10,424 nucleotides of DNA from a virus (lineage: Duplodnaviria > Heunggongvirae > Uroviricota > Caudoviricetes), in the IMG/VR virus record IMGVR_UViG_2778261161_000006, positions 1 through 10,424 of that record, one strand, 5' to 3'. Both the position numbers and the translations under genes were made by a program. A model generated the notes under the pieces. The model searched no databases. It saw only the letters and a list, made by a program, of their open reading frames with translations, and had not been told where the DNA came from. Of this stretch, positions 1 through 10,424 are shown one piece after another; positions within the stretch are counted from its first letter, which is position 1; every line of letters starts with the position of its first letter.

Positions 1-165
1 ATCTCTGTTGCCGGGATGCCTTCCAGTACAGGCCAGAAAGAGCCATCATCAAGCCCGAGATCGCGGCGTTCGGTTACCGTGGCATTTGAAGAGAAGTATG
101 GCTCCCAGCTGGAGCTGATATTTCGTTTTATCGATCGCGCACTGGCGATTGGTGTGCTGGCCTGA
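1..165 (+). CDS. 3' end of an unidentified ORF upstream of Q (partial; start lies outside the window)
   Basis: Frame 1 is open from position 1 to a TGA at 163-165, ending 17 nt before the Q start. The translation (…[30 protein letters not shown]) matches nothing I recognise. Supported only by the open frame and position. Confidence 0.25.
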
Positions 166-182
166 TTTTGTGGAGAAAGTTA

Positions 183-566
183 ATGCGTGATATTCAGATG
201 GTTCTTGAACGTTGGGGAGCGTGGGCGGCTAATAATCATGAAGATGTGACCTGGTCGTCCATTGCCGCCGGTTTTAAGGGATTAATTCCTTCAAAAGTAA
301 AATCTCGCCCGCAATGTTGTGACGATGACGCGATGATTATTTGCGGGTGCATGGCCCGTCTGAAAAAGAACAACAGCGATTTGCACGATTTATTAGTAGA
401 TTATTATGTAGTCGGTATGACATTCATGTCACTGGCAGGTAAGCATTGCTGCTCTGATGGTTATATCGGGAAAAGGTTACAGAAGGCTGAGGGCATAATT
501 GAAGGGATGTTAATGGCATTAGATATCCGGTTAGAGATGGATATCGTTGTTAATAACTCTAATTAA
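183..566 (+). CDS. quuD: Late-gene antitermination protein Q (127 aa)
   Basis: ATG at 183 preceded by GGAG at 171-174. Cys-rich putative zinc-binding region (…[18 protein letters not shown]…GKHCCSDGY…). Sits immediately upstream of hairpin terminators and the lysis cassette. Matches my recollection of the DLP12 Q-like protein. Confidence 0.8.
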
Positions 567-599
567 TATGCCAATTGTTTACTGAAAGTTATTAAAAAT

Positions 600-618
600 G
601 GGGCGTTGCAACGCCCCC
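600..618 (-). terminator. GC-rich perfect palindrome GGGGCGTTGCAACGCCCC; candidate intrinsic terminator for the antisense porin transcript (possibly bidirectional)
   Basis: 18-nt perfect palindrome at 600-617. On the minus strand it is followed by ATTTTTAATAAC (complement of 585-599). It lies about 140 nt downstream of the nmpC stop on the minus strand. Confidence 0.4.
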
Positions 619-683
619 AAAAATAAAGGGTAATATATAACAGAAGGTTTATATAGTTAGAAGCAAGGTTGTGCTCCTAAAGG

Positions 684-747
684 AAGTGGCTTGAGGGAGC
701 CACTTATATGTTGGGGAGGCAACGCCTCCCGCAACATATCTTTTTCG
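684..747 (+). terminator. Tandem hairpins downstream of Q; the second is a strong intrinsic terminator (candidate tR' of the Q-controlled late transcript)
   Basis: Hairpin 1: AAGTGGCT (684-691) / AGCCACTT (698-705), loop TGAGGG. Hairpin 2: ATATGTTGGGGAGGC (706-720) / GCCTCCCGCAACATAT (724-739), about 15 bp with a one-nt bulge, followed by C and TTTTT (741-745). The position is analogous to lambda pR'-tR'. Confidence 0.5.
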
Positions 748-755
748 TAATCAGA

Positions 756-1853
756 TTAGAACTGGTAAACCAGACCTACAGCAACGATGTCATCAGTGCT
801 TACACCGAGTGCTTTAGTGAAGTCATTTTTGTCAAGCAGGTTGATTTTGTAATCAACGAAAGTAGACATATTTTTGTTGAAGTAATAGGTTGCACCTACA
901 TCAACATATTTGACTAAGTCCTGATCGCCCCATACTCCAAGATCCTTACCTTTAGATTGCAGGTAAGCAACGGACGGACGCAGACCGAAATCGAACTGAT
1001 ATTGTGCAACAGCTTCGAAGTTTTGAGCTTTATTAGCAACGAAGTGATCAGCAAATACAGTCATATTCTGGGTTTCAGAATAGGTAGTGGCCAGGTAAAT
1101 GTTGTTAGCGTCATATTTCAGACCTGCGGCCCAAACTTCTGCATTTTTACCGGAAGCAAATACTTCAGGAAGAACTTTCCCTGCATTAACTTGAGTGTCG
1201 GTACGATCAGATTTCGCATAAGTTGCACCGATACCGAATCCTTCGTATTCATAGGTAGCAGAGAAACCGAAGCCATCACCGTTACCTTCGGTGTAGTTAT
1301 CGAAATCGCTACGATCGTTTTTGCCTTGGTACTGAGCAGCAAAGTTCAGACCATCAACCAGACCAAAGAAGTCGTTGTTACGATAGGTTGCAACACCAGT
1401 GGTGCGACCAGTCATGAACACATCTGTTTGGGTCCAGGTATCGCCACCGAATTCTGGCAGAACGTCAGTCCACGCACCGATGTCGTATGCTACACCGTAG
1501 TTACGGCCGTAATCGATTGAGCCGTAGTCACCGAATTTCAGGCCTGCAAATGCAAGACGGGTTTTGTCTTTGGAGGAACCTTGAGATTCAGCGCGGTTGC
1601 CTTTGAATTCATATTCCCACTGACCGAAACCAGTCAGCTGATCGTTGATTTGGGTTTCGCCTTTGAAGCCCAGACGAACATAAGTAGTATCACCATCATC
1701 TGCATCGTTAGAGGAAAAGTAGTGCTTGGCATTAACTTTCCCGTACAGATCCAGCTTGTTACTGTCTTTATTATAAATTTCAGCTGCCTGAGCAGACATC
1801 GCCATCAGTACTGATGCAGCTACAGCAGAAATTGCCACTGTTAATTTTTTCAT
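756..1853 (-). CDS. nmpC: Outer-membrane general porin, OmpC/OmpF family (NmpC / phage Lc-type), intact 365 aa
   Basis: N-terminal signal peptide [23 protein letters not shown]|AEIYNKD. Porin-like Gly/Tyr/Asp-rich beta-strand pattern and C-terminal YQF with terminal Phe, typical of outer-membrane beta-barrels. Uninterrupted ORF; no IS sequence inside. Confidence 0.92.
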
Positions 1854-2441
1854 CGTGAGCCCTTTTTTTTGAACTATTATTAAAAAATGATGTCACTGCG
1901 CGATAAATATTCATCTAATCAATGTGATTATTTCAAGATGTAAGTTTTAGTTTCTCATTTAATTTGTGAAGTAGATCTCTATTTTTATCTGAACTTTTTC
2001 TATCGAAACCTATTTATGGCTCTTATTTGAACAAAAATAAATCTATTAGCTAATTTATATTAATGGCTGTTATTTATGGTGGTTCTATAATTCGTCTGTT
2101 TAATTTAAACCGGCTAAAAATAACACTGGAAATTATTTATTGGTTATTTGTTGAGGTTTTCTTATGTATTTGTGGTGATGTTTTGAACACTCGGTAGCAT
2201 TCTCATAAATATCATTCAGTGGTTTACGTACGTAAAAAATTGGTTATGCTGTTAAGAGTGGTTACTTCGTCACACAGCTTAAACCCGCCGTCGAGCTGGT
2301 TTTTCCATTTTTTGAGTCTCGATATTAGCTGATAACTCAATACCTGAGTTATTCACTGACTCGGAGTCAGTTACGTTTCTGCTTTTTTGCGATACGTTGT
2401 ATTCCCTCAATTTACACCCGCTTTGTCTGCGAGGTGGGGTT
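1854..2441. promoter_or_regulatory. AT-rich intergenic region of about 590 bp holding the divergent nmpC promoter/leader and the lysis-cassette upstream region; contains repeated TATTTATGG-type motifs and a 14-bp palindrome
   Basis: Visibly AT-rich. Direct repeats ATGGCTCTTATTT (2016-2028) and ATGGCTGTTATTT (2063-2075). TATTTATGG at 2011 and 2071, and TATTTATTGG near 2134. Perfect palindrome TTTACGTACGTAAA at 2223-2236. Confidence 0.4.
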
Positions 2442-2657
2442 ATGAAATTCATGGATAAGTTAACAACTGGAGTCGCCTATGGCACCTCAGCAGGTAGTGC
2501 CGGTTACTGGTTTTTACAGCTGCTCGATAAAGTCACTCCCTCACAGTGGGCAGCAATAGGTGTGCTGGGTAGCCTGGTATTTGGCCTGCTGACGTACCTG
2601 ACAAACCTTTATTTCAAGATTAAAGAAGATAAGCGCAAGGCTGCGAGAGGTGAATAA
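2442..2657 (+). CDS. essD: Class II holin / pinholin with dual-start motif (phage 21 S-like), 71 aa
   Basis: RBS GAGGTGGGG upstream of ATG 2442. N-terminus MKFMDK has two in-frame Met codons (holin/antiholin dual start). Two hydrophobic segments and a charged C-terminus ([13 protein letters not shown]). Stop overlaps the endolysin start (TAATG). Closely resembles phage 21 S as I recall it. Confidence 0.9.
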
Positions 2658-3154
2658 TGCCTCCATCATTACGAAAAGCCGTTGCTGCTGCTATTGGTGG
2701 CGGAGCAATTGCTATAGCATCAGTGTTAATCACTGGCCCAAGTGGTAACGATGGTCTGGAAGGTGTCAGCTACATACCATACAAAGATATTGTTGGTGTA
2801 TGGACTGTATGTCACGGACACACCGGAAAAGACATCATGCTCGGTAAAACGTATACCAAAGCAGAATGCAAAGCACTCTTGAATAAAGACCTTGCCACTG
2901 TCGCCAGACAAATTAACCCGTATATCAAAGTCGATATACCGGAAACAACGCGCGGCGCTCTTTACTCATTCGTTTACAATGTGGGTGCTGGCAATTTTAG
3001 AACATCGACGCTTCTTCGCAAAATAAACCAGGGCGATATCAAAGGCGCATGTGATCAGCTGCGTCGCTGGACATACGCTGGCGGTAAGCAATGGAAAGGC
3101 CTGATGACTCGTCGTGAGATTGAGCGTGAAGTCTGTTTGTGGGGGCAACAGTGA
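2657..3154 (+). CDS. rrrD: SAR (signal-anchor-release) endolysin, T4-lysozyme-like muramidase, 165 aa
   Basis: N-terminal Gly/Ala-rich hydrophobic segment [20 protein letters not shown] (SAR domain). Catalytic E35, D44, T50 in [16 protein letters not shown]. Start overlaps the holin stop. Typical phage 21 R-type. Confidence 0.92.
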
Positions 3155-3612
3155 GCAGAGTAACCGCGATTATATCCGCTCTGATTATCTGCATCATCGT
3201 CAGCCTGTCATGGGCGGTCAATCATTACCGTGATAACGCAATCGCCTACAAAGCCCAGCGCGACAAAAATGCCAGAGAACTGAAGCTAGCGAACGCGGCA
3301 ATTACTGACATGCAGATGCGTCAGCGTGATGTTGCTGCGCTCGATGCAAAATACACGAAGGAGTTAGCTGATGCGAAAGCTGAAAATGATGCTCTGCGTG
3401 ATGATGTTGCCGCTGGTCGTCGTCGGTTGCACATCAAAGCAGTCTGTCAGTCAGTGCGTGAAGCCACCACGGCCTCCGGCGTGGATAATGCAGCCTCCCC
3501 CCGACTGGCAGACACCGCTGAACGGGATTATTTCACCCTCAGAGAGAGGCTGATCACTATGCAAAAACAACTGGAAGGAACCCAGAAGTATATTAATGAG
3601 CAGTGCAGATAG
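3151..3612 (+). CDS. rzpD: Inner-membrane spanin Rz (i-spanin), lambda-type
   Basis: Protein from [13 protein letters not shown]… is near-identical to lambda Rz as I recall it (N-terminal TMD, coiled-coil periplasmic domain). Likely GTG start at 3151 overlapping the endolysin stop (GTGA), preceded by GGGGG; an alternative GTG at 3139 is possible. Confidence 0.85.
3371..3553 (+). CDS. rzoD: Outer-membrane lipoprotein spanin Rz1 (o-spanin), embedded in the +1 frame of Rz, 60 aa
   Basis: [20 protein letters not shown]… has lipobox LVVVGC and a proline-rich mature region ([16 protein letters not shown]). Fully nested within Rz. Near-identical to lambda Rz1 as recalled. Confidence 0.85.
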
Positions 3613-3643
3613 AGCTGACCATATCGATGGGCAACTCATGCAA

Positions 3644-3937
3644 TTATTTTGAGCAATACACACGCGCTTCCAGCGGAGTATAAATGCCTAAAGTAATAAA
3701 ACCGAGCAATCCATTTACGAATGTTTGCTGGGTTTCTGTTTTAACAACATTTTCTGCGCCGCCACAAATTTTGGCTGCATCGACAGTTTTCTTCTGCCCA
3801 ATTCCAGAAACGAAGAAATGATGGGTGATGGTTTCCTTTGGTGCTACTGCTGTCTGTTTGTTTTGAACAGTAAACGTCTGTTGAGCACATCCTGTAATAA
3901 GCAGGGCCAGCGCAGTAGCGAGTAGCATTTTTTTCAT
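3644..3937 (-). CDS. borD: Bor outer-membrane lipoprotein (serum-resistance, Iss family), 97 aa
   Basis: MKKMLLATALALLITGC… has lipobox LITGC. Same length and near-identical sequence to lambda Bor as recalled. Antisense to the lysis genes, as in lambda. Confidence 0.92.
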   Translation of the reverse strand: MKKMLLATALALLITGCAQQTFTVQNKQTAVAPKETITHHFFVSGIGQKKTVDAAKICGGAENVVKTETQQTFVNGLLGFITLGIYTPLEARVYCSK

Positions 3938-4227
3938 GGTGTTATTCCCGATGCTTTTTGAAGTTCGCAGAATCGTATGTGTAGAAAATTAAACAAACCC
4001 TAAACAATGAGTTGAAATTTCATATTGTTAATATTTATTAATGTATGTCAGGTGCGATGAATCGTCATTGTATTCCCGGATTAACTATGTCCACAGCCCT
4101 GACGGGGAACTTCTCTGCGGGAGTGTCCGGGAATAATTAAAAACGATGCACACAGGGTTTAGCGCGTACACGTATTGCATTATGCCAACGCCCCGGTGCT
4201 GACACGGAAGAAACCGGACGTTATGAT

Positions 4228-4638
4228 TTAGCGTGGAAAGATTTGTGTAGTGTTCTGAATGCTCTCAGTAAATAGTAATGAATTATCAAAGGTATAGTAA
4301 TATCTTTTATGTTCGTGGATATTTGTAACCCATCGGAAAACTCCTGCTTTAGCAAGATTTTCCCTGTATTGCTGAAATGTGATTTCTCTTGATTTCAACC
4401 TATCAAAGGACGTTTCTATAAGATGCGTATTTCTTGAGAATTTAACATTTACAACCTTTTTAAGTCCTTTTATTAACACAGTGTTATCGTTTTCTAACAC
4501 AATGTGAATATTATCTGTGGCTAGATAGTAAATATAATGTGAGACATTGTGACGTTTTAGTTCAGAATAAAACAATTCACAGTTTAAATCTTTTCGCACT
4601 TGATCGAATATTTCTTTAAAAATGGCAACCTGAGCCAT
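4228..4638 (-). CDS. ybcV: Hypothetical protein YbcV (DUF1398-type), 136 aa; AT-rich cargo gene
   Basis: ORF open to 4761 (177 aa), but the internal ATG at 4638 is preceded by GGAAGG about 9 nt upstream and gives the 136-aa form I recall for K-12 YbcV. Strongly AT-rich compared with the flanking lambda-like DNA. Confidence 0.7.
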
Positions 4639-4923
4639 TGGTAAAACCTTCCATGTGATACGAGGGCGCGTAGTTTGCATTATCGTTTTTATCGTTTCAA
4701 TCTGGTCTGACCTCTTTGTGTTTTGTTGATGATTTATGTCAAATATTAGGAATGTTTTCAATTAATAGTATTGGTTGTGTAACAAAGTGCGGTCCTGCTG
4801 GCATTCTGGAGGGAAATACAACCGACAGATGTATGTAAGGCCAACGTGCTCAAATCTTCATACAGAAAGATTTGAAGTAATATTTTAACCGCTAGATGAA
4901 GAGCAAGCGCATGGAGCGACAAA

Positions 4924-5130
4924 ATGAATAAAGAACAATCTGCTGATGATCCCTCCGTGGATCTGATTCGTGTAAAAAATATGCTTAATAGCACCATTTC
5001 TATGAGTTACCCTGATGTTGTAATTGCATGTATAGAACATAAGGTGTCTCTGGAAGCATTCAGGGCAATTGAGGCAGCGTTGGTGAAGCACGATAATAAT
5101 ATGAAGGATTATTCCCTGGTGGTTGACTGA
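4924..5130 (+). CDS. ybcW: Small hypothetical protein YbcW, 68 aa
   Basis: ATG at 4924 preceded by GGAG (4911-4914). 68-aa ORF in the position and of the length I recall for DLP12 ybcW. Divergent from ybcV. No recognisable domain. Confidence 0.6.
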
Positions 5131-5294
5131 TCACCATAACTGCTAATCATTCAAACTACTTAACCTGTGACAGAGCCAACACGCAGTCTGTCACTGTCAG
5201 GAAAGTGGTAAAACTGCAACTCAATTACTGCAATGCCCTCGTAATTAAGTGAATTTACAATATCGTCCTGTTCGGAGGGAAGAACGCGGGATGT

Positions 5295-5489
5295 TCATTC
5301 TTCATCACTTTTAATTGATGTATATGCTCTCTTTTCTGACGTTAGCCTCCGACGGCAGGCTTCAATGACCCAGGCTGAGAAATTCCCGGACCCTTTTTGA
5401 TCAAGAGCGATGTTAATTTGTTCAATCATTTGGTTAGGAAAGCGGATGTTGCGGGTTGTTGTTCTGCGGGTTCTGTTCTTCGTTGACAT
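5295..5489 (-). CDS. ylcI: Small basic protein with predicted ribbon-helix-helix fold (YlcI-like), 64 aa
   Basis: Basic N-terminal tail (KNRTRRTTTR) followed by a beta-strand/helix/helix pattern NIRFPNQMIEQINIALDQKGSGNFSAWVIEACRRRL, typical of Arc/MetJ/CopG regulators. Lies in DNA that matches the lambda right end as I recall it. Confidence 0.55.
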   Translation of the reverse strand: MSTKNRTRRTTTRNIRFPNQMIEQINIALDQKGSGNFSAWVIEACRRRLTSEKRAYTSIKSDEE

Positions 5490-5688
5490 GAGGTTGCCCC
5501 GTATTCAGTGTCGCTGATTTGTATTGTCTGAAGTTGTTTTTACGTTAAGTTGATGCGGATCAATTAATACGATACCTGCGTCATAATTGATTATTTGACG
5601 TGGTTTGATGGCGTAGATGCACGTTGTGACATGTAGATGATAATTATTATCATTTTGCGGGTCCTTTCCGGCGATCCGACAGGTTACG

Positions 5689-5700
5689 GGGCGGCGACCT
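5689..5700 (+). other. cosN: lambda cohesive-end sequence GGGCGGCGACCT (terminase nicking site)
   Basis: Exact 12-nt lambda cohesive-end sequence, flanked on both sides by sequence matching the lambda genome termini as I recall them (…CCGACAGGTTACG | GGGCGGCGACCTCGCGGGTTTTCGCTATTTATGAAAATTTTCCGG…). Confidence 0.9.
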
Positions 5701-5739
5701 CGCGGGTTTTCGCTATTTATGAAAATTTTCCGGTTTAAG

Positions 5740-5856
5740 GCATTTCCGTTCTTCTTCGTCGTAACTTAATGTTTTTATTTAAAATACCCCCTGAAAAGAA
5801 AGGAAACGACAGGTGCTGAAAACGAGCTTTTGGGCCTCTGTCGTTTCCTTTCTCTG
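5740..5856 (+). promoter_or_regulatory. cosB: terminase small-subunit binding region (R3, IHF site I1, R2, R1)
   Basis: R3-like CATTTCCGTTCTTCTTCG (5741-5758). AT-rich I1-like stretch (about 5768-5786). R2 GAAAGGAAACGACAGG (5798-5813) and R1 CTGTCGTTTCCTTTC (5838-5852) form a 15-nt inverted repeat. Positioned between cosN and the Nu1 start, as in lambda. Confidence 0.75.
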
Positions 5857-5877
5857 TTTTTGGCCGTGGAATGAACA

Positions 5878-6423
5878 ATGGAAGTCAACAAAAAGCAGCT
5901 GGCTGACATTTTCGGTGCGAGTATCCGTACCATTCAGAACTGGCAGGAACAGGGAATGCCCGTTCTGCGAGGCGGTGGCAAGGGTAATGAGGTGCTTTAT
6001 GACTCTGCCGCCGTTATAAGATGGTATGCCGAAAGGGATGCTGAAATTGAGAACGAAAAGCTGCGCCGGGAAGTTGAAGAACTGCGGCAGGCCAGCGAGA
6101 CAGATCTCCAGCCAGGGACTATTGAGTACGAACGCCATCGACTTACGCGTGCGCAGGCCGACGCACAGGAGTTGAAAAATGCCAGAGACTCCGCTGAAGT
6201 GGTGGAAACCGCATTCTGTACTTTCGTGCTGTCGCGGATCGCAGGTGAAATTGCCAGTATTCTCGACGGGATCCCCCTGTCGGTGCAGCGGCGTTTTCCG
6301 GAACTGGAAAACCGACATGTTGATTTCCTGAAACGGGATATCATCAAAGCCATGAACAAAGCAGCCGCGCTGGATGAACTGATACCGGGGTTGCTGAGTG
6401 AATATATCGAACAGTCAGGTTAA
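5878..6423 (+). CDS. nohD: Terminase small subunit Nu1, 181 aa
   Basis: MEVNKKQLADIFGASIRTIQNWQEQGMPVLRGGGKGNEV… (winged helix-turn-helix N-terminus) is near-identical to lambda Nu1 as recalled. 3' end overlaps the A start, as in lambda. Confidence 0.93.
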   Translation: MEVNKKQLADIFGASIRTIQNWQEQGMPVLRGGGKGNEVLYDSAAVIRWYAERDAEIENEKLRREVEELRQASETDLQPGTIEYERHRLTRAQADAQELKNARDSAEVVETAFCTFVLSRIAGEIASILDGIPLSVQRRFPELENRHVDFLKRDIIKAMNKAAALDELIPGLLSEYIEQSG

Positions 6424-7501
6424 CAGGCTGCGGCATTTTGTCCGCGCCGGGCTTCGCTCACTGTTCAGGCCGGAGCCACAGACCGCCGTTGAATGGGCGG
6501 ATGCTAATTACTATCTCCCGAAAGAATCCGCATACCAGGAAGGGCGCTGGGAAACACTGCCCTTTCAGCGGGCCATCATGAATGCGATGGGCAGCGACTA
6601 CATCCGTGAGGTGAATGTGGTGAAGTCTGCCCGTGTCGGTTATTCCAAAATGCTGCTGGGTGTTTATGCCTACTTTATAGAGCATAAGCAGCGCAACACA
6701 CTTATCTGGTTGCCGACGGATGGTGATGCCGAGAACTTTATGAAAACCCACGTTGAGCCGACCATCCGCGATATTCCGTCGCTGCTGGCGCTGGCTCCGT
6801 GGTATGGCAAAAAGCACCGGGATAACACGCTCACTATGAAGCGTTTTTCCAATGGTCGTGGCTTCTGGTGCCTGGGCGGTAAAGCGGCAAAAAACTACCG
6901 TGAAAAGTCGGTGGATGTGGCGGGTTATGATGAACTTGCTGCCTTTGATGAGGATATTGAACAGGAAGGCTCTCCGACGTTCCTTGGCGACAAACGTATT
7001 GAAGGCTCGGTCTGGCCAAAGTCCATCCGTGGCTCCACGCCCAAAGTGAGAGGCACCTGCCAGATTGAGCGTGCAGCCAGTGAATCCCCGCATTTTATGC
7101 GTTTTCATGTTGCCTGCCCGCACTGCGGGGAGGAGCAGTATCTTAAATTTGGCGACAAAGAGACGCCGTTTGGCCTCAAATGGACGCCGGATGACCCCTC
7201 CAGCGTGTTTTATCTCTGCGAGCATAATGCCTGCGTCATCCGCCAGCAGGAGCTGGACTTTACTGATGCCCGTTATATCTGCGAAAAGACCGGGATCTGG
7301 ACCCGTGATGGCATTCTCTGGTTTTCGTCATCCGGTGTGACCGTGGAAACGGCCCGCCGCATTCTGGCAGCTGCACCACAGAGTGCACAGGCGCGCAGTG
7401 ACACTGCGCTGGATCGTCTGATGCAGGGGGCACCGGCACCGCTGGCTGCAGGTAACCCGGCATCTGATGCCGTTAACGATTTGCTGAACACACCAGTGTA
7501 A
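6398..7501 (+). pseudogene. A: Truncated terminase large subunit A (N-terminal ~313 aa) fused to ~54 codons from the 3' end of the gene preceding D (C/Nu3 region); deletion remnant
   Basis: MNISNSQVNRLRHFVRAGLRSLF… through …GILWFSSSG matches lambda gpA N-terminal half as recalled. Lambda A is about 641 aa, whereas this ORF is 367 aa. After the junction near 7336 the sequence (VTVETARRILAAAPQ…NDLLNTPV) is not gpA and runs straight into the D RBS. Confidence 0.85.
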
Positions 7502-7860: not shown

Positions 7861-7887
7861 AAAGGCCGCCTGTGCGGCTTTTTTTAC
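7861..7887 (+). terminator. Hairpin plus T-tract in the D-E intergenic region (intrinsic terminator/attenuator-like)
   Basis: AAAGGCCGCCTGTGCGGCTTTTTTT: GCCGC/GCGGC stem with flanking A/T pairing, followed by 7 T. Confidence 0.5.
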
Positions 7888-7898
7888 GGGATTTTTTT

Positions 7899-8405
7899 AT
7901 GTCGATGTACACAACCGCCCAGCTGCTGGCGGCAAATGAGAAGAAATTTAAGTTTGATCCGCTGTTTCTGCGTCTCTTTTTCCGTGAGAGCTATCCCTTC
8001 ACCACGGAGAAAGTCTATCTCTCACAAATTCCGGGACTGGTAAACATGGCGCTGTACGTTTCGCCGATTGTTTCCGGTGAGGTTATCCGCTCCCGTGGCG
8101 GCTCCACCTCTGAATTTACACCGGGATATGTCAAGCCGAAGCATGAGGTGAATCCGCAGATGACCCTGCGTCGCCTGCCGGATGAAGATCCACAGAATCT
8201 GGCGGACCCGGCTTACCGCCGCCGTCGCATCATCCTGCAGAACATGCGAGACGAAGAGCTGGCCATTGCTCAGGTCGAAGAGATGCAGGCCGTTTCTGCC
8301 GTGCTTAAGGGCAAATATACCATGACCGGTGAAGCCTTCGATCCGGTTGAAGTGGATAGAGGTCTTTTTAGAAGAAGGTCTCTCCGTTACTGCACCTGCT
8401 TCTGA
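7899..8405 (+). pseudogene. E: Truncated major capsid protein E (first ~153 codons of 341) followed by 15 out-of-context codons and a stop; deletion remnant
   Basis: MSMYTTAQLLAANEKKFKFDPLFLRLFFRESYPFTTEKVYLSQIPGLVNMALYV…EAFDPVEVD matches the lambda gpE N-terminus as recalled, then diverges at 8358 ([15 protein letters not shown]). Confidence 0.88.
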
Positions 8406-9840
8406 TTATATTGTTGCTGAAACGACTTATAAATTTGGCGCAACTGATCCTTATTCTGAATCAGTTGCGGTAAATTTAATTTTAGATTTTAAACAAGGTA
8501 ATGGATTTTATAGTTCGTATCCTGTTTTGAGTAAGTCAGACATTAGCGGGAATAAGATTTACGCTAATGATGAAGTTATTGTCCGTAGTCAGAACGCGTT
8601 AAGGATGATTGCAGGTGATTACGGTGTCATATGGCGAAATGATGGAGCAAATACTTACTTGCTCATGACTGATAAAGGCGACCAGTACGGTGGCTGGAAC
8701 GGTCTTCGACCATTTGCAGTAAATAACGCAACAGGTGAAGTGACGATCAATACATCACTTAATTCTCCTAAGGGGATTAAGGGAAATTCTGATACAGCTA
8801 CGAAACTTCAGACAGCAATAAAAATATCTGGTGTTTCGTTTGATGGTTCTACTGATATCACTTTAACCGCTGCGCATGTTGCTGCTTTTGCCAGAAGAGC
8901 AACGGATACGTATGCCGATGCGGATGGGGGCGTTCCCTGGAATGCCGAATCAGGCGCTTACAATGTCACTCGCTCTGGCGACAGCTATATTCTGGTTAAC
9001 TTCTATACCGGAGTCGGAAGTTGCCGGACCTTGCAGATGAAGGCGCATTACAGAAATGGTGGTCTGTTCTACCGTTCTTCAAGAGACGGTTATGGTTTTG
9101 AGGATGACTGGGCAGAAGTTTATACCTCGAAAAATCTTCCACCAGAAAGCTACCCAGTCGGCGCACCAATCCCGTGGCCATCAGATACCGTTCCGTCTGG
9201 TTATGCCCTGATGCAGGGGCAGACTTTTGACAAATCTGCCTACCCGAAACTTGCAGTCGCTTATCCGTCAGGCGTGATCCCTGATATGCGTGGCTGGACG
9301 ATTAAGGGCAAGCCCGCCAGTGGTCGTGCCGTATTGTCTCAGGAACAGGACGGCATTAAATCGCACACTCACAGCGCCAGCGCATCCAGTACGGATTTGG
9401 GTACGAAAACCACATCGTCGTTTGATTACGGCACTAAATCCACGAATAACACCGGGGCGCATACGCACAGTCTGAGCGGCTCTACAAGCTCGGCCGGAGC
9501 ACACTCGCACGTTGATGGTCGCAGGTTTAATACAAGCACTTTTAAAGACACCTATCAGTATGGTTCTACAGCTGTCGGAAGTAACTCATACCAGGTACAA
9601 GGGGCGGTTGGTCTGGGCATTGGCACGATGGCGAATACGAACTCTGCTGGCGCGCATACCCACTCACTGTCCGGCACTGCTGCAAGCGCAGGTGCACACG
9701 CACATACTGTCGGTATTGGTGCTCATACGCACTCCGTTGCGATTGGCTCACATGGACACACCATCACCGTTAACGCTGCTGGTAACGCGGAAAACACCGT
9801 CAAAAACATCGCATTTAACTATATTGTGAGGCTTGCATAA
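8359..9840 (+). pseudogene. stf: 5'-truncated side tail fibre gene (stf-like): non-lambda AT-rich central domain plus lambda Stf / T4 gp37-like C-terminal His-box domain
   Basis: Continuous frame from the junction to the stop, with no credible start of its own (the GTG at 8329 lies inside the E remnant in another frame). C-terminal ~230 aa ([71 protein letters not shown]…[11 protein letters not shown]) match lambda Stf as recalled. Confidence 0.8.
9361..9770 (+). repeat. Internal repeated His-box (HxH) motifs of the tail-fibre distal domain
   Basis: Repeated GAHTHSLSG(S/T)…AGAH(S/A)[18 protein letters not shown] and [11 protein letters not shown] segments within the stf-like ORF. Confidence 0.6.
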
Positions 9841-10424
9841 TGGCATTCAGAATGAGTGAACAAGCACGGACCATAAAAATTTATAATCTGCTGGCCGGAA
9901 CTAATGAATTTATTGGTGAAGGTGATGCATATATTCCGCCTCATACAGGTCTGCCAGCAAACAGTACCGATATTGCACCACCAGATATTCCTGCTGGCTT
10001 TGTGGCTGTTTTCAACAGTGATGAGGCATCGTGGCATCTCGTTGAAGACCATCGGGGTAAAACGGTTTATGACGTAGCGTCAGGGGACGCGTTATTTATT
10101 TCTGAACTCGGTCCGTTACCGGAAAATGTTACCTGGTTATCGCCGGAAGGGGAGTTTCAGAAGTGGAACGGCACAGCCTGGGTGAAAGATGCAGAAGCAG
10201 AAAAACTGTTCCGGATCCGGGAGGCGGAAGAAACAAAAAACAGCCTGATGCAGGTAGCCAGTGAGCATATTGCGCCACTTCAGGATGCTGTAGATCTGGA
10301 AATCGCAACGGAGGAAGAAACCTCATTGCTGGAAGCCTGGAAAAAGTATCGGGTGTTGCTGAACCGTGTTGATACATCAACTGCACCTGATATTGAGTGG
10401 CCTACGAACCCTGTCAGGGAGTAA
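9840..10424 (+). CDS. tfa: Tail fibre assembly protein Tfa, intact, 194 aa
   Basis: [54 protein letters not shown]… is near-identical to lambda Tfa as recalled. Start overlaps the stf stop (TAATG). Stop at 10422-10424. Confidence 0.9.

Follow-up and report, generated by a model that had tools for sequence, protein, structure and literature searches.

The window analysed here, a 10,424-nt stretch of viral DNA, contains at positions 2442-3612 what is very probably an intact lambdoid lysis cassette of the DLP12/PA-2 type (essD-rrrD-rzpD-rzoD), carried by a prophage that sits at the DLP12 site and has undergone heavy deletion. The list of open reading frames and the raw sequence both place four intact genes, S, R, Rz and Rz1, within these 1171 nt. 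All the defining features that can be tested in the sequence are present, and the region belongs to the family of lysis cassettes of DLP12, PA-2 and phage 21. The cassette is already known. It occurs at 100% identity in many E. coli chromosomes at NCBI, where the genes are annotated as essD, rrrD and rzpD, and matches over at least 80% of its length are found in 3310 of 5426 complete E. coli genomes. A literature search returned no paper treating DLP12, essD and rrrD together. As a textbook pinholin/SAR-endolysin/spanin cassette, present in most E. coli genomes and with the structure of its endolysin solved, it matters little in itself. Mildly useful are the persistence of the lysis block in so strongly reduced a relic at the DLP12 site and the finding that the holin is the PA-2 allele.

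Organization of the lysis genes

The positions of the lysis genes and of the neighbouring features are collected in Table 1. S and R overlap in a TAATG sequence (2655-2659), and the stop codon of R overlaps the start codon of Rz in a GTGA sequence (3151-3154), as read directly from the DNA. Rz1 starts 220 nt past the start of Rz, which places it in the +1 frame, and it spans the interval from 0.48 to 0.87 of the Rz length. All four initiation codons are preceded by Shine-Dalgarno-like motifs, at sites annotated as ribosome-binding in the phage 434B record. The list of open reading frames also holds an alternative in-frame start for Rz, GTG 3139, upstream of GTG 3151. Pfam placed S in PF04971, the 'P21 holin S' family (2e-35; a score of 121 bits where 26 would suffice; residues 5-67), R in PF00959 (1.3e-45), Rz in PF03245 (5.3e-54) and Rz1 in PF06085 (4e-20), all of them far better than expected by chance. 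No specific NCBIfam model matched S, Rz, Rz1 or Q.

Table 1. Positions, in the window, of the lysis genes and of the features around them.
Feature	Position	Strand	Remarks
Q-type late antiterminator (quuD homologue)	183-566	+	PF06530 for the same gene in L008/L010
Porin of the lc/nmpC type, between Q and S	756-1853	-	PF00267, 1.8e-156; intact; PA-2-like placement
S (essD-type)	ATG 2442 to TAA 2655-2657	+	71 codons; starts MKFMDK
S68-type pinholin frame	2451-2657	+	Second in-frame ATG (2451), Met4 of the S gene
R (rrrD-type), SAR endolysin, GH24 lysozyme	ATG 2657 to TGA 3152-3154	+	165 aa
Rz (rzpD-type), inner-membrane spanin	GTG 3151 to TAG 3610-3612	+	153 aa
Rz1 (rzoD-type), outer-membrane lipoprotein spanin	ATG 3371 to 3553	+	60 aa
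Lambda right-end block (Rz, Rz1, bor, ybcV/lambdap78, ybcW/lambdap79, to cos)	3152-5688		blastn

The S gene begins with Met1-Lys2-Phe3-Met4, a dual start in which Lys2 supplies an added N-terminal positive charge to the longer product. The product initiated at Met1 is predicted to be an antiholin of the S71 type, and that initiated at Met4 a pinholin of the S68 type. Both starts are annotated in the records of phage 21 and phage 434B, where the Met4-equivalent product is called 'holin class II', and production of an antiholin with an extra N-terminal positive charge from a dual start is a known feature of such genes (PMC9636201). The hydropathy profile of S comprises a weakly hydrophobic TMD1 at residues 8-28 (mean KD 0.55, with 57% of residues Gly, Ala, Ser or Thr) and a strongly hydrophobic TMD2 at residues 36-58 (mean KD 1.5). 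Residues G40, S44 and G48, which form a face that counts functionally in S21, are all kept within TMD2. The S protein is 98.6% identical to EssD of K-12 and to S of phage 434B; the corresponding values against S21 are 84.5% for the protein and 76.9% for the nucleotide sequence.

R contains a single match to the pattern E-x8-D-x5-T, formed by E35, D44 and T50; this is the catalytic motif of lysozymes named in PMC9239132. Directly after Arg6-Lys7, residues 8-26 are hydrophobic and rich in Gly and Ala (63% Gly/Ala/Ser/Thr), and the N-terminus as a whole is identical to that of R21. We take this N-terminus to be a weakly hydrophobic SAR segment, putatively uncleaved. In R21, export depends on Sec, the protein is tethered to the membrane, and depolarisation brings about its release (PMC6116005). 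R and R21 share 95.6% of their nucleotides and 98.8% of their amino acids. Over its 165 aa, R furthermore shows 100% identity to 'Lysozyme RrrD', whose crystal structure is PDB 4ZPU, and it is near-identical to PDB 3HDE/3HDF (3HDE match 3.7e-111).

The two spanin genes likewise retain the features expected of their products. Rz has an N-terminal TMD, with hydrophobic windows over residues 1-26, and keeps Cys99 and Cys152; Rz1 has the lipobox VVGC, with Cys20, and keeps Cys29. The lipobox consensus, [LVI][ASTVI][GAS]C, and a rule on the position of embedded Rz1 genes are given in PMC6139136, according to which Rz C99, Rz C152 and Rz1 C29 are needed for intermolecular disulfides. Rz is 97.2% (nt) and 97.4% (aa) identical to lambda Rz, 96.8% (nt) and 94.8% (aa) identical to phage 21 Rz, and 99.8% (nt) identical to rzpD of K-12. 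For Rz1 the values are 98.9% (nt) against lambda and 99.5% (nt) and 98.3% (aa) against phage 21, while identity to rzoD of K-12 and to Rz1 of phage 434B is 100%. The differences between Rz and its lambda counterpart include V12I, C18S, T32A and the GTG start, and Rz1 carries one change, P34R, relative to both lambda and phage 21; all five are common to K-12 and to 434B, a propagated phage.

The initial annotation had described four intact frames with the TAATG and GTGA overlaps, a phage-21-type holin with the MKFMDK dual start, a phage-21-type endolysin with a SAR domain and E35/D44/T50, and an Rz/Rz1 pair close to that of lambda. The matches and alignments above bear out each of these readings.

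Predicted course of lysis

Near-identity of the four proteins to studied ones, taken together with the literature (PMC6116005, PMC9636201, PMC9239132, PMC6139136), suggests the following mechanism. Q would act at a late promoter downstream of its own gene, presumably in the predicted promoter region at 567-755, and all products would be made from a single mRNA. A promoter and terminator scan of positions 1-4200 gave 7 promoter-like sites against 8.5 expected in shuffled sequences, and did not single out a late promoter. Translation of the S gene would yield two proteins, the S68 pinholin from Met4 and the S71 antiholin, with its extra Lys2, from Met1. Sec would export R, whose weakly hydrophobic SAR segment would keep the enzyme inactive and anchored in the inner membrane. 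At a set time, S68 would form heptameric channels of about 2 nm and the proton-motive force would collapse, S71 delaying this step through its added positive charge. The channels of S21 are small (~2 nm); they depolarise the membrane and do not let a cytoplasmic endolysin out (PMC6116005, PMC9636201). The SAR segment would then exit the bilayer, allowing the lysozyme to refold around E35/D44/T50 and to degrade the murein. Finally, the complex of Rz in the inner membrane with Rz1, an outer-membrane lipoprotein, would be freed of the restraint of the wall and would disrupt the outer membrane.

Two propagating or complete phages bear on whether the cassette could still carry out these steps. PhiR29_1 is deposited as a complete phage genome with ECOR13 as recorded host; a literature search found no paper describing the PhiR29 phages. 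Neither the cassette nor the Q-porin intergenic region (567-755) shows a mismatch to PhiR29_1, and the Q protein is identical to that of PhiR29_1 and one residue off QuuD of K-12. Over window positions 71-7337 the mismatches to this phage number 49. Phage 434B, propagated as a clear-plaque phage, had its own Q, late promoter and lysis region replaced by the syntenic segment of DLP12 (PMC9119081); no difference separates the cassettes of K-12 DLP12 and 434B, in agreement with the published exchange. Since the same cassette, Q protein and Q-porin region occur in PhiR29_1, since the K-12 version, 7 nt away, serves 434B, and since all the motif residues and ribosome-binding sites are kept, the cassette is probably competent for lysis if expressed. 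The DLP12 module has itself been reported to be transcribed and functional (PMC7918800).

The residual prophage and the fate of its lysis genes

The window is 100% identical to positions 3-10426 of L010, from draft assembly GCA_002463805.1. In L008 and L010 the element is bordered on one side by a fimbrial gene and the genes of a fimZ-like regulator and an integrase, and on the other by a ybcY-like methyltransferase, ompT, an AraC-family (envY-like) gene and nfrA. Window positions 148-6705 are collinear with, and 97.8-97.9% identical to, positions 573920-581661 of K-12 when IS5 is excluded, and the tfaD part is 98.4% identical. The host element is a prophage residing at the DLP12 site of the E. 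coli chromosome and heavily deleted there.

Deletions are apparent in several places. In L008, the distance from int to Q is only about 1.1 kb, and what lies to the left of Q consists of int, xis and three small ORFs; homology to PhiR29_1 starts only at window position 71, the region upstream of Q being deleted. The terminase A gene breaks off at lambda position 1650, where it is fused to lambda position 5568 with a 6-bp overlap, W, B and most of C/Nu3 being gone. This A'-C' fusion forms an ORF of 367 aa (6398-7501), of which exact copies are found in draft assemblies with the same element. Capsid gene E ends prematurely, at lambda position 6594, and runs from there into a tail-fibre gene. The C-terminus of the terminase, the portal, the protease and the tail genes are absent from the element, in line with its original description as a cryptic prophage. 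The relic thus described keeps int-xis, Q, the porin, the lysis genes, bor, cos, Nu1 and fragments, and is without immunity, replication and morphogenesis genes. The right-hand part of the window was found in one piece in none of the complete E. coli genomes searched.

It is possible, though we regard it as a tentative reading, that the cassette has been kept in this relic as a domesticated host module, with a part in low-level peptidoglycan turnover, vesicles and biofilm; such a role would be compatible with competence for lysis. Published work has put forward a role of this kind for DLP12 of K-12 (PMC7918800, PMC2408971). There the module is reported to be transcribed and stress-responsive, and its deletion to raise the output of outer-membrane vesicles approximately 4-fold (PMC7918800); rzpD is also involved in Hha-linked lysis (PMC2408971). 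The survival of the cassette through at least three large deletions that took most other phage functions, and the many complete genomes with matches to it, argue in the same direction. On the other hand, many of these genomic copies probably sit in functional prophages, and the near-identity to an active phage (4 mismatches in 3.7 kb) is also consistent with a relic that is young or recently recombined. The leftmost 3.7 kb hold no further mismatches to PhiR29_1, and the right part of the window is 1-2% diverged, so intactness of the lysis genes is no evidence of selection. Conservation specific to the cassette relative to its flanks was also considered and was rejected, the low mismatch count extending over the whole left part in a block-wise pattern.

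That the cassette is silent debris, intact by chance and unexpressed for loss of the early region transcribing Q, seems unlikely. The arrest of PhiR29_1 homology upstream of Q, the few genes remaining on that side, and a consensus scan that gave no convincing sigma-70 promoter ahead of S speak for this explanation. Against it stand the identity of the Q protein and of the Q-porin intergenic region to those of PhiR29_1, and the K-12 homologue, which likewise is without a working early region and yet is reported to be transcribed (PMC7918800). More doubtful still is the proposal that the block formed by Q, the porin and the lysis genes has been retained by selection under host control, serving in the turnover of murein and the regulation of vesicles, with S3F tuning S71:S68 towards sub-lytic activity.

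Relation to phage 21, lambda and other lambdoid elements

The intact DLP12/PA-2-type cassette in its deleted prophage had initially been presented as a mosaic, in which phage-21-type S and R genes were joined to the Rz/Rz1 pair of lambda. Each gene was aligned separately with phage 21 (record OL657228) and with lambda, and the boundary with lambda proved to be sharp and to coincide with the stop codon of R and the start of Rz: in blastn, homology begins at 3152, the second base of the Rz initiation codon. The lambda right-end block that starts at this point matches lambda 45967-48502 at 98.3%, and homology runs on past cos into Nu1/A, positions 5689-7337 matching lambda 1-1650. Upstream of the boundary, per-gene comparison of S and R with S and R of lambda gave no detectable similarity.

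What did not stand is the view of this boundary as a notable junction between phage 21 and lambda, for phage 21 has the same boundary. Per-gene alignment of phage 21 with lambda gave 98.7% nucleotide identity for Rz and 99.5% for Rz1, so the layout of the cassette is native and not a new junction. Moreover, identity to phage 21 passes the R/Rz boundary without a step (90-95% on either side). The 1171-nt cassette is collinear in a single piece with phage 21 (92.7%), 434B (99.4%), and PhiR29_1 and PhiR29_2 (both 100%), and from this collinearity with phage 21, 434B and PhiR29_1 it follows that the arrangement is ancestral in this lambdoid lineage and has long been sequenced. S and R genes of the S21/R21 type followed by lambda-like Rz and Rz1 are thus the order native to phage 21, 434, PA-2 and DLP12, from which lambda departs only upstream of Rz. 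This corrects the earlier reading: the combination belongs to phage 21 and its relatives, and the cassette therefore gives no evidence of recent recombination. A new mosaic junction at R/Rz was ruled out by the per-gene alignments against phage 21, 434B and lambda. That this element or its lineage in particular arose by recombination at R/Rz between an S-R segment of phage 21 and Rz/Rz1 of lambda is extremely improbable: although bor shares 99.0% of its nucleotides with lambda and 93.2% with phage 21, and lambda homology does begin at codon 1 of Rz and extend to cos, Rz is not meaningfully nearer to lambda than to phage 21, and phages 21, 434, 434B, PA-2 and PhiR29_1 are all collinear with the cassette.

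A sharper internal boundary, which the initial annotation had overlooked, is seen within the cassette when it is compared with phage 21. In 60-nt windows, identity is 73-82% across S and exceeds 91% from approximately position 2622 onward, the step falling near the 3' end of S (~2620-2650). The holin is the PA-2/DLP12 allele, and R almost the phage 21 allele.

Among the well-known systems close to it is DLP12 of K-12 MG1655, whose cassette, essD-rrrD(ybcS)-rzpD-rzoD, differs by 7 mismatches (1164 of 1171 nt identical). The four genes, their lengths and overlaps, the GTG start of Rz and the P34R change in Rz1 are shared, and the proteins R and Rz1 show no difference. Both elements also occupy the same place in the chromosome and have the same flanking Q, bor, ybcV, ybcW, ylcI and nohD. 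The 7 nucleotide differences result in S3F, in the N-terminus present only in the antiholin, and in V35A in Rz. Upstream, the porin gene is interrupted by IS5 in K-12 and is intact here. The prophage deletions also differ, since the K-12 junction maps to 6705/9986, whereas the junctions of the present element lie at 7337 and 8358.

Phage PA-2 is known in this region from J02580, an old GenBank fragment of 2816 nt that ends within Rz. Positions 529-3344 of the window are 98.3% identical to it at the nucleotide level, and both have the order porin (lc)-S-R-Rz and the MKFMDK start. The PA-2 record differs in a 1-nt gap that breaks the frame of S and in a few substitutions, among them A101P in R and V17I in Rz.

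Phage 21 agrees with the cassette in architecture, in the lengths of the genes and in how they overlap, and it shares the dual start with Lys2, the E35/D44/T50 triad and the SAR N-terminus; its S allele is diverged, and tRNA genes occupy the upstream position held here by the porin gene. Lambda shares the embedded +1 Rz1, the cysteines Cys99, Cys152 and Cys29, and, at 98.3%, bor and the sequence as far as cos. Its S (107 aa) and R (158 aa) are the genes without detectable similarity to those of the cassette, and they work differently: lambda S is a class I holin that makes micron-scale holes (PMC9636201), and lambda R, which is not exported by Sec, is kept in the cytoplasm until the S holes form (PMC6116005).

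Junctions in the terminase, capsid and tail-fibre genes

Comparison with lambda showed that terminase gene A is broken off at lambda position 1650 and, through a 6-bp overlap, is continued by the 3′ end of C/Nu3 from lambda 5568; approximately 3.9 kb, which contains W, B and the greater part of C/Nu3, is lost. Among public assemblies, at least 10 contigs encode this same fusion protein. Capsid gene E ends early, at lambda position 6594, with a tail-fibre ORF directly adjoining; none of the tail-shaft genes is present. From 9160 onward, the tail-fibre part resembles lambda stf/tfa at only ~82% identity. A full-length match to IS009 lies within the tail-fibre assembly gene.

Features of the prophage relic (window coordinates)
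Feature	Position	Strand	Junction	Remarks
Left deletion scar	1-182
Porin gene, lc/nmpC type	756-1853	-		365 aa, intact
Fusion ORF	6398-7501		7332-7337	367 aa, in frame; terminase A + C/Nu3 3′ end
E/tail-fibre region	7872-9840		~8358	Capsid gene E remnant abutting tail-fibre ORF
Tail-fibre ORF	8329-9840			503 aa; adjoins truncated E
Tail-fibre assembly gene	9840-10424+			Directly after tail-fibre ORF
IS009 Rfam match (RF02111)	10183-10381	+		229.5 bits; gathering score 117

The left end and divergence from PhiR29_1

Homology to phage PhiR29_1 starts at position 71, within the 3′ end of a ydfU-family gene of that phage, whereas homology to the K-12 DLP12 prophage starts only at 148, 35 nt ahead of the antiterminator gene Q. 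Since the full contigs carry nothing to the left of Q other than int, xis and three small ORFs, the relic lacks an immunity or replication region. Mismatches to PhiR29_1 fall in blocks, with 4 in the 71-3772 interval as opposed to 45 in 3773-7337; the cos region and A′ diverge by about 2%. This block-wise distribution suggests that the two halves have different recombination histories.

A second element in sibling assemblies

In sibling assemblies (contigs L009, 11747-21104, and L013, 3028-5768), identity to the window stops at position 8143, within the E remnant. Beyond this breakpoint lies another element encoding an integrase, AlpA, a D5-type primase, SSB, homologues of capsid proteins E and D, and Nu1. 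Its gene content resembles that of a satellite, either P4-like or capsid-forming, that has inserted at this point.

The porin gene compared with phage PA-2 and K-12

Q lies on one side of the porin gene and the lysis genes on the other, with the porin gene in antisense orientation, an arrangement shared with phage PA-2. Unlike the K-12 copy, which is broken by IS5, the copy in the window is uninterrupted.
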